In this document: one piece after another, positions 130-3,100 of the stretch | How positions within the stretch are numbered: position 1 is the stretch's first letter | How the letters are laid out: every line of letters starts with the position of its first letter | NCBI RefSeq assembly: GCF_003334315.1 | Contig: NZ_QOWR01000103.1 | Length of the DNA stretch: 3,689 bases | Reading direction: 5' to 3' (one strand) | Source of the DNA: Escherichia coli | GTDB lineage: Bacteria; Pseudomonadota; Gammaproteobacteria; Enterobacterales; Enterobacteriaceae | Notes under the pieces: generated by a model | The model's input: the letters and a program-made list of their open reading frames with translations, nothing else | Databases searched by the model: none | Told to the model about the DNA's origin: nothing | Translations under genes and position numbers: made by a program

Positions 130-3100
130 ACTTCGGGCAACCCGGTAAATCCGCTGCTGGGGGCGAAGGTGCTGCCGGGCGAGACGGACCTTGCGCTGCC
201 CGGCCCGCTGCCGTTCATTCTCTCCCGCACCTACAGCAGCTACCGGACCAGGACACCCGCGCCGGTGGGAGTGTTTGGCCCCGGCTGGAAAGCGCCTTCT
301 GATATCCGCTTACAGCTACGCGATGATGCACTGGTACTCAACGACAACGGCGGGCGGAGCATTCACTTTGAGCCGCTGCTGCCGGGGGAGGCGGTGTACA
401 GCCGCAGCGAGTCAATGTGGCTGGTGCGCGGTGGTAAGGCAGCGCAGCCGGACGGCCACACGCTGGCGCGGCTGTGGGGGGCGCTGCCGCCGGATATCCG
501 GTTAAGCCCGCATCTTTACCTGGCGACCAACAGCGCACAGGGGCCGTGGTGGATACTGGGGTGGTCTGAGCGGGTGCCGGGTGCTGAGGACGTACTGCCA
601 GCGCCGCTGCCGCCGTACCGGGTGCTTACCGGGCTGGCAGACCGTTTCGGGCGGACGCTGACGTACCGGCGTGAGGCCGCAGGCGACCTGGCCGGGGAAA
701 TCACCGGCGTGACGGACGGTGCCGGGCGGGAGTTCCGTCTGGTGCTGACCACGCAGGCGCAGCGTGCGGAAGAGGCCCGCACCTCTTCGCTATCTTCTTC
801 TGACAGTTCCCGCCCTCTCTCAGCCTCAGCGTTCCCCGACACACTGCCCGGTACCGAATACGGCCCCGACAGGGGTATCCGCCTTTCGGCAGTGTGGCTG
901 ATGCACGACCCGGCATACCCGGAAAGCCTGCCCGGTGCGCCACTGGCGCGGTACACGTATACGGAAGCCGGTGAACTGCTGGCGGTATATGACCGCAGCA
1001 ATACGCAGGTGCGCGCTTTCACGTATGACGCGCAGCACCCGGGCCGGATGGTGGCGCACCGTTACGCGGGAAGGCCGGAGATGCGCTACCGCTACGACGA
1101 TACGGGGCGGGTGGTGGAGCAACTGAACCCGGCAGGGTTAAGCTACCGCTATCTTTATGAGCAGGACCGCATCACCGTCACCGACAGCCTGAACCGGCGT
1201 GAGGTGCTGCATACAGAAGGCGGGGCCGGGCTGAAACGGGTGGTGAAAAAAGAACTGGCGGACGGCAGCGTCACGCGCAGCGGGTATGACGCGGCAGGAA
1301 GGCTCACGGCGCAGACGGACGCGGCGGGACGGCGGACAGAGTACGGTCTGAATGTGGTGTCCGGCGATATCACGGACATCACCACACCGGACGGGCGGGA
1401 GACGAAATTTTACTATAACGACGGGAACCAGCTGACGGCGGTGGTGTACCCGGACGGGCTGGAGAGCCGCCGGGAATATGATGAACCGGGCAGGCTGGTA
1501 TCGGAGACATCGCGCAGCGGGGAGACAGTACGCTACCGCTACGATGACGCGCACAGTGAGTTACCGGCGACGACAACGGATGCGACGGGCAGCACCCGGC
1601 AGATGACCTGGAGCCGCTACGGGCAGTTGCTGGCGTTCACCGACTGCTCGGGCTACCAGACCCGTTATGAATACGACCGCTTCGGCCAGATGACGGCGGT
1701 CCACCGCGAGGAAGGCATCAGCCTTTACCGCCGCTATGACAACCGTGGCCGGTTAACCTCGGTGAAAGACGCACAGGGCCGTGAAACGCGGTATGAATAC
1801 AACGCCGCAGGCGACCTGACTGCCGTCATTACCCCGGACGGCAACCGGAGCGAGACACAGTACGATGCGTGGGGAAAGGCGGTCAGCACCACGCAGGGCG
1901 GGCTGACGCGCAGTATGGAGTACGATGCTGCCGGACGTGTCATCAGTCTGACTAACGAGAACGGCAGCCACAGCGACTTCAGCTACGATGCGCTGGACCG
2001 GCTGGTACAGCAGGGCGGCTTTGACGGGCGGACGCAACGTTATCATTATGACCTGACCGGAAAACTCACGCAGAGTGAAGATGAGGGGCTTGTCACCCTC
2101 TGGCACTACGATGCGTCGGACCGCATCACGCACCGGACGGTGAACGGCAACCCGGCAGAGCAGTGGCAGTATGACGGCCACGGCTGGCTGAGAGAAATCA
2201 GCCACCTGAGCGAAGGCCACCGTGTCGCTGTCCACTACGGCTACGACGATAAGGGCCGCCTGACGGGCGAACGGCAGACGGTGGAGAACCCGGAGACGGG
2301 GGAACTGCTGTGGCAGCATGAGACGAAACACGCCTACAACGAACAGGGGCTGGCAAACCGCGTCACGCCGGACAGCCTGCCGCCGGTGGAGTGGCTGACG
2401 TATGGCAGCGGTTACCTGGCGGGAATGAAGCTGGGCGGGACGCCGCTGGTCGAGTATACGCGGGACAGGCTGCACCGTGAGACGGTGCGCAGCTTCGGCA
2501 GCATGGCAGGCAGTAATGCCGCATACGAACTGACCAGCACATACACCCCCGCAGGCCAGTTACAGAGCCAGCACCTGAACAGCCTGGTATATGACCGTGA
2601 CTACGGGTGGAGTGACAACGGCGACCTGGTGCGCATCAGCGGCCCGCGACAGACGCGGGAATACGGCTACAGCGCCACGGGCAGGCTGGAGAGTGTGCGC
2701 ACCCTCGCACCAGACCTGGACATCCGCATCCCGTATGCCACGGACCCGGCGGGCAACCGGCTGCCGGACCCGGAGCTGCACCCGGACAGTACACTCACAG
2801 TGTGGCCGGATAACCGCATCGCGGAGGATGCGCACTATGTCTACCGCCACGATGAATACGGCAGGCTGACGGAGAAGACGGACCGCATCCCGGCGGGTGT
2901 GATACGGACGGACGACGAGCGGCCCCACCACTACCACTACGACAGCCAGCACCGCCTGGTGTTCTACACGCGGATACAGCATGGCGAGCCACTGGTCGAG
3001 AGCCGCTACCTCTACGACCCGCTGGGACGGCGAATGGCAAAACGGGTCTGGCGGCGGGAGCGTGACCTGACGGGGTGGATGTCGCTGTCGCGTAAACCGG

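Follow-up and report, generated by a model that had tools for sequence, protein, structure and literature searches.

A pyrimidine-rich tract in an Escherichia coli Rhs core gene probably encodes an insertion-tolerant loop within the shell

The window analysed here (3689 nt) is occupied by a single open frame on the + strand, which runs off the 3′ end and encodes a member of the known E. coli Rhs toxin-carrier family. A 100% match to the window is found in E. coli 2017.04.03CC (NZ_AP025205.2, CDS WP_229266115.1), where the gene occupies the rhsE locus between yncH and ydcC. The K-12 genes rhsD (protein NP_415030) and rhsA are ~98% and ~76% identical to the window, respectively. The full CDS of the identical genome copy scores 2773.7 bits against the NCBIfam equivalog model NF041261 RHS_core (cut-off 2000), with protein residues 1-1258 aligned to profile positions 1-1261. 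Multiple YD repeats are recognised by Pfam RHS_repeat (eight matches with E <= 0.001, together with weaker ones) and by TIGR01643 YD_repeat_2x (E = 4.5e-49), and the RHS-associated core is matched by Pfam RHS (PF03527, aa 1154-1190) and by TIGR03696 (aa 1181-1258). Directly 3′ of the window, the identical genome copy encodes a predicted C-terminal aspartyl-protease motif, DPIG-x18-DPLG, of the general form DPxG-x18-DPxG. The 5′ end has features that may point to a T6SS effector: a vgrG gene ends 66 nt upstream, and the N-terminal 47 residues are PAAR-like by position, Tse5-NT being residues 1-47 of its own protein (PMC10684867). The match of this fragment to Pfam PAAR_motif is weak (aa 3-20, E = 0.28), and AlphaFold2 pLDDT is below 50 for aa 1-30. 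An antisense open reading frame at 516-1022 (168 aa) is one among many that arise mechanically in a GC-rich gene, and we found no support for it as a gene. The coordinates of the features discussed below are collected in Table 1.

Table 1. Features of the Rhs core gene and of the pyrimidine-rich tract and its surroundings (positions in the window)
Feature	Position (nt)	Strand	Basis or remark
RHS element core protein gene, 5′ 3689 nt of 4209 nt (aa 1-1229 of 1402)	1..3689	+	single +1 ORF
Short N-terminal fragment (aa 1-47), counterpart of PAAR-like Tse5-NT	1..141	+	position relative to Tse5-NT
Plug domain DUF6531 (aa 46-123)	136..369	+	Pfam PF20148, E = 2.9e-18
N47/P48, homologous to mapped N-terminal autocleavage sites	139..144	+	alignment with Tse5, conservation
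Predicted shell beta-strand EFRLVLTT (aa 244-251)	730..753	+	AlphaFold2 pLDDT about 85-96; follows invariant D239/R243 of the degenerate YD-type repeat
Predicted short helix (aa 252-265), opening the long loop	754..795	+	AlphaFold2; last five residues within the tract
7-bp inverted repeat GAAGAGG/CCTCTTC, terminator-like	769..788	+	consensus scan; 5′ edge of the tract, T/C-rich tail after
Pyrimidine-rich tract (17 residues, aa 261-277), hypervariable low-confidence loop core	781..831	+	sequence, composition, variation, AlphaFold2
TCT x3 trinucleotide repeat (TCTTCTTCT)	793..801	+	sequence
Loop remainder (aa 278-292), better conserved within E. coli	832..876	+	D290 and G292 nearly invariant family-wide
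8-nt direct repeats CCCCGACA bounding the PF9285 duplication	834-841 and 864-871 (834..871)	+	sequence
Predicted shell beta-strand (aa 293-302)	877..906	+	AlphaFold2 pLDDT about 95; invariant R294, L295

The tract reads ACC TCT TCG CTA TCT TCT TCT GAC AGT TCC CGC CCT CTC TCA GCC TCA GCG, and the coordinates, frame and peptide given for it in an earlier sequence-only reading are exact. The local compositional anomaly noticed there within a GC-rich gene is also real. Pyrimidines make up 38 of the 51 nucleotides (75%), whereas the window as a whole has 44%. No 51-nt stretch of the window is richer than those that begin at 776-777 (78%, 4.6 sd over the mean), a value that was matched in 0 of 2000 codon shuffles. 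GC skew, mostly positive elsewhere, falls to -0.53 at the tract, and the GC content is 57% there and 64% for the gene. However, the description of the tract as almost entirely C/T was too strong, because purines occupy 13 of the 51 positions and no uninterrupted pyrimidine run exceeds 9 nt. The bias exceeds what serine content alone explains: TCN and AGY serine codons stand at 8:1 in the tract and at 17:53 in the rest of the gene (Fisher p = 0.0003), and GC3 is 0.47 compared with 0.77 for the gene. Among the six codons that follow ACC, four are TCT.

The presence of TCTTCTTCT, the unusual choice of serine codons and a terminator-like hairpin followed by a T/C-rich tail might suggest that the function of the tract resides in the DNA or RNA, either as a slippage contingency repeat (TCTx3), as a polypyrimidine structure or as a hairpin that modulates expression. 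We find such a function scarcely credible. The TCT repeat had been proposed as a potential slippage site, but when 5426 complete E. coli genomes were searched at >=99% identity with a 130-nt query in TCTx2, TCTx3 and TCTx4 versions, the native TCTx3 form gave 2439 records and the other two gave none, such that copy number at 793-801 was not polymorphic among these strains. Tandem Repeats Finder reported nothing in the whole window and, together with the population data, this led us to reject active slippage of the repeat. Two frameshifted rhsD pseudogenes were considered and set aside: the frameshift in LD91-1 stems from the loss of one nucleotide within a GGGCGGG run that lies upstream of the tract, and in the pseudogene from S1-SRL-01-C the aligned tract is unchanged in length and extra bases are found upstream of base 700. 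The RNA fold at 769-788 is unexceptional (z = -1.5; 15 of 200 shuffled sequences fold equally well), and alleles that carry 9 additional nucleotides lose both the 3′ arm and the spacing of the hairpin. With a negative Rfam search in addition, we attribute this element to chance. A scan for promoter-like sites found none, pyrimidine runs of 9 nt at most argue against a polypyrimidine structure, and genes of the rhsA type have non-pyrimidine sequence at the same position. Nor did we find support for a local inversion as the origin, as the reverse complement of the tract matches rhsA-type sequence no better than shuffled sequences do (p = 0.16).

At the protein level, the tract had been interpreted as a Ser-rich linker that joins an N-terminal domain to the YD shell and that might serve for N-terminal processing or as a hinge. 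Several T6SS Rhs proteins do undergo N-terminal autocleavage, the tract is of low complexity, variable in length and modelled with low confidence, and confident Pfam RHS_repeat matches begin only at aa 320 (a faint match covers aa 209-243). Despite this, we consider such a role very improbable, and the location of known processing sites is one argument against it. All mapped cleavages fall where the DUF6531 plug opens, at its first residue. Tse5 cleaves itself at K47/P48, with residues 48-124 forming the plug and the remainder, from 125, the barrel (PMC10684867), and P. protegens RhsA is cleaved at H304/P305 (PMC8765631). The deposited Tse5 shell chain (8cp6_B) starts PVNP and aligns to P48 of the window protein (nt 142-144), and the plug-start motif PVNPxLGAKVL, in the context xP/VNPxLGAKVL, is kept at aa 47-58. 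Across 42 homologues, at least 90% keep P48 and all keep V49 and G54, and each residue of the motif core (P48, V49, P51 and G54) is either invariant or at least 90% conserved. N47/P48 is therefore the likely N-terminal processing site of the window protein by homology, and the tract lies 213 residues downstream of it. Moreover, distant homologues are without the tract, which excludes it as a conserved processing element.

The predicted structure bears on the same question. An AlphaFold2 model of aa 1-1200, built on an alignment of 42 sequences (mean pLDDT 88.3, pTM 0.80), is matched by Foldseek to Tse5 (8cp6_B, E = 1.8e-87, target-normalised TM 0.85) and to the cocoons of RhsA (TM 0.83) and Advenella VgrG-Rhs (TM 0.84), and predicts a cocoon fold with an N-terminal DUF6531 plug. 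After the plug, the model predicts eight shell strands ahead of the tract, which is also preceded by a degenerate YD-type repeat of 13 residues. The strands on either side of it contain or adjoin invariant columns of the homologue alignment (D239, R243, R294 and L295), and both align with the Tse5 barrel, the EFRLVLTT region with 'GRSYALVYQQ' and the strand at aa 293-302 with 'DDGLRLFGVIL'. The tract is thus situated within the shell, in a loop between two conserved strands, and not before the shell. A linker would be expected between two folding domains and upstream of the first shell strand, and the tract occupies neither position; the plug, the eight predicted strands and the degenerate repeat that precede it contradict the proposed boundary at this place. 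What does survive from that proposal is the flexibility of the segment. Mean pLDDT is 85 for aa 251-260, 71 for 261-270, 52 for 271-280, 74 for 281-290 and 95 for 291-300, with values below 50 at aa 272-276 and of 85-95 in the flanks of the tract, and the model has coil at aa 266-292 between the helix and the second strand. The low-complexity segment is probably disordered, and may be surface exposed, in the real protein.

Comparison of sequences shows that the loop varies greatly. In Rhs cores of E. coli and Shigella the segment between QRAE and FPDTL falls into four length classes and carries many substitutions: 15 residues in the RhsA/B/C type (EARQQAISGGTEPSA), 20 in the window itself, 23 in two further versions (EARKQRTASLSSPDTPRPLSASA and EARKPHTASLSSPDSPCPLSAPS) and 24 in another (AFRKQRATSLSSPAGPRSASSSSA). 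Since the length varies among paralogues and strains, with indels near the tract, and model confidence is low, the invariant and structured loop that would have told against flexibility was not what we found. The alleles with 9 additional nucleotides differ from the window by TAAACAGCG where the tract begins, at its 5′ edge, as well as by a cluster of substitutions inside it, and the 80 bases upstream of this indel are invariant in 7/7 compared sequences. Other alleles of the RhsD/RhsE subfamily carry KQR followed by TASLSSPDTPRPLSASA in place of the window's version. In rhsD of PF9285, which is annotated as intact, an in-frame tandem duplication of 30 nt just 3′ of the tract doubles 10 residues. 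Relative to K-12 rhsA, the 60 nt from position 781 form the highest peak of divergence in the core (36/60 differences, mean 14). Across the 42 homologues (27-76% identity) the span from R243 to R294 ranges from 14 to 55 residues (median 26.5); most of these proteins are without the tract and a few have unrelated low-complexity inserts at this position, for example PNPTSNPTLGATPSNTPSTSAVS. Synonymous and non-synonymous differences both cluster in the tract, and relaxed constraint on the protein alone does not fully explain this pattern. Mosaic recombination is a possible cause, because P0009 has a junction at the edge of the tract, as is alignment uncertainty.

This variation could also be viewed as the signature of a functional, lineage-specific loop, either an interaction surface or a flexible tether close to the N terminus of the cocoon, for which VgrG, the PAAR-like fragment, a chaperone or a target-cell component may be partners, or a segment under diversifying selection. 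Several observations would suit such a role. Long inserts have arisen independently at the same inter-strand position in distant Rhs lineages, which fits with tolerance but also with recurrent functional use; the Ser/Pro-rich character is kept in three of the four length classes, which might mean that a flexible hydrophilic loop is weakly selected for and not purely neutral; divergence within the core is greatest at the tract; and Tse5 binds the membrane via lineage-specific surface protrusions (PMC10684867). On the other hand, RhsA/B/C have a shorter and unrelated sequence, QQAISGGTEPSA, at this place in proteins that are 78% identical, model confidence at the tract is low, and not one residue of aa 261-277 is conserved between subfamilies, so we regard a specific function of the loop as unlikely. 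A further idea, which we offer as quite improbable, is that the connection between R243-T251 and I293-R294 is a recurrent insertion site of Rhs cocoons, near the plug in sequence, at which flexible lineage-specific inserts such as the Ser-rich one serve as a tether or hinge, contact the PAAR-like fragment or VgrG, or provide a secondary site of protease sensitivity that helps the cocoon to open after delivery.

Taken together, we favour the view, to which we would assign a probability of roughly three in four, that the tract encodes an ordinary loop, tolerant of insertions and probably disordered, within the N-terminal stretch of the cocoon, and that its pyrimidine bias is a by-product. The tract would account for the most variable portion of a loop of 41 residues (aa 252-292) which links two conserved antiparallel strands of the predicted beta-cocoon, ~137 residues past the end of the plug. 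In the wider family the same connection is usually about 10-15 residues long, and the longer version of the E. coli and Shigella lineages would consist of a short helix and then a Ser/Pro/Ala-rich segment, probably disordered. Such a segment would contribute little to the fold and would therefore tolerate substitutions and in-frame indels, which in turn would make it diverge faster than any other part of a core that is otherwise well conserved. The abundance of pyrimidines would then follow from Ser, Pro and Leu being coded by TCN, CCN and CTN, and the enrichment of TCT may be compatible with an old codon-repeat expansion that has since decayed. Most likely, the tract plays no specific role in processing, secretion or regulation.

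The feature is ordinary and the protein already known, and the significance of these observations is correspondingly small. They do have some use in the annotation of Rhs proteins, where a low-complexity loop of this kind need no longer be misread as a domain boundary or processing site, and for the E. coli Rhs protein of the window they place the likely N-terminal processing site, by homology, at N47/P48. The loop also looks like a permissive site. Given that natural in-frame indels of 3 to 10 residues occur there, it could be tried for tag insertion in E. coli Rhs cores.

The relationship of the tract to characterised systems can be summarised as follows. It is absent from the T6SS Rhs effectors in which autocleavage is known, namely Tse5, P. 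protegens RhsA, TseI and Rhs1. Tse5 of P. aeruginosa (PDB 8cp6) is the closest solved Rhs cocoon (sequence E = 4.5e-115) and resembles the window protein in having a short PAAR-like fragment, a plug that starts at P48, a beta-cocoon and a C-terminal aspartyl-protease plug. It differs at the loop, where 'TGVRDSAGRSYALVYQQ' and 'DDGLRLFGVIL' are only 7 residues apart, compared with 41 in the window protein, and there is no Ser-rich tract; its own lineage-specific protrusions, at 141-167, 873-914 and 1031-1062, are away from the tract position (PMC10684867). The E. coli proteins RhsA/B/C are much closer, with ~78% protein identity over aa 1-450 and the same flanks (11 residues on one side and FPDTLPG on the other), but their loop core is 5 residues shorter, is not Ser-rich and is encoded by DNA that is not pyrimidine-rich. 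Finally, K-12 RhsD, which belongs to the same RhsD/RhsE subfamily (NF041261), shows no substantive difference from the window protein and carries an identical tract.

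The rhsD gene of E. coli strain PF9285 (L007, positions 101-260) carries a 30-nt, in-frame tandem duplication of window 841-870, such that the encoded 10-residue peptide is present twice; the gene is annotated as intact. Both ends of the duplicated unit are flanked by an 8-nt direct repeat (see table), and this is the sole length change near the tract with evident microhomology. A frameshift is found in the rhsD pseudogene of strain LD91-1, where a 1-nt deletion maps to a GGGCGGG run upstream of the tract (window ~724-731). It is this deletion, and not the TCT repeat within the tract, that causes the frameshift. 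The terminator-like inverted repeat is internal to the ORF and located where the tract begins on its 5′ side. The RNA fold of this repeat was non-significant when tested, and a check of other alleles showed that the repeat is not conserved in them.

Two of the compared proteins are composite. P0009 is a mosaic Rhs allele which resembles the window protein from aa 1 to ~255 and then, over aa ~256-416, resembles P0001 (a Shigella protein of the 'core with extension' type), before becoming different again beyond ~416. One of its recombination junctions coincides with the tract edge (aa ~250-262 in window protein numbering). P0015, a 701-aa protein named VgrG, has an N-terminal part that corresponds to Rhs aa 1-372 at 99% identity, including the tract. 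Its precomputed Pfam list contains three further families that are absent among the Rhs matches here and which, as listed, are consistent with the VgrG name. P0015 is a chimeric ORF, which may have originated from rearrangement or misassembly.

In the 100%-identical genome copy (E. coli 2017.04.03CC, NZ_AP025205.2; locus L010), the vgrG-rhs pair is intact. The same site in K-12 presumably holds only the rhsE pseudogene. Besides the 353-aa antisense ORF there are several more of 100-240 aa. Such long antisense ORFs are to be expected because the gene is 64% GC with high GC3, and we found no supporting evidence for any of them as genes.

Features in and around the Rhs gene (window coordinates unless stated)
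Feature	Position	Residues	Details
PAAR-like N-terminus	1-90	1-30	AF2 pLDDT below 50
Inverted repeat GAAGAGG/CCTCTTC	769-788		7-bp arms, 6-nt loop, T/C-rich tail; flagged terminator-like
Direct repeat CCCCGACA	834-871		8 nt; flanks PF9285 duplication
Antisense ORF	2560-3621		353 aa; minus strand
Short loop, GVIRTD region	2893-2910	965-970	AF2 pLDDT below 50
Locus of identical copy	L010 2826-9615		yncH, vgrG, rhs core (1402 aa), 'dsORF-e4', IS1 remnant, ISEc5 transposase ydcC

Apart from the tract, the remaining low-confidence segments of the AlphaFold2 (AF2) model are the PAAR-like N-terminus and the short GVIRTD loop. The model also contains a helical-only insertion of ~65 residues near the end of the cocoon, within its final turns (aa 1076-1141, window 3226-3423). 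The sequence alignments to Tse5, RhsA and Tse15 pass over this segment (query ~1073-1141). The insertion is a second lineage-variable insert and may be a counterpart of the helical protrusions described for Tse5.
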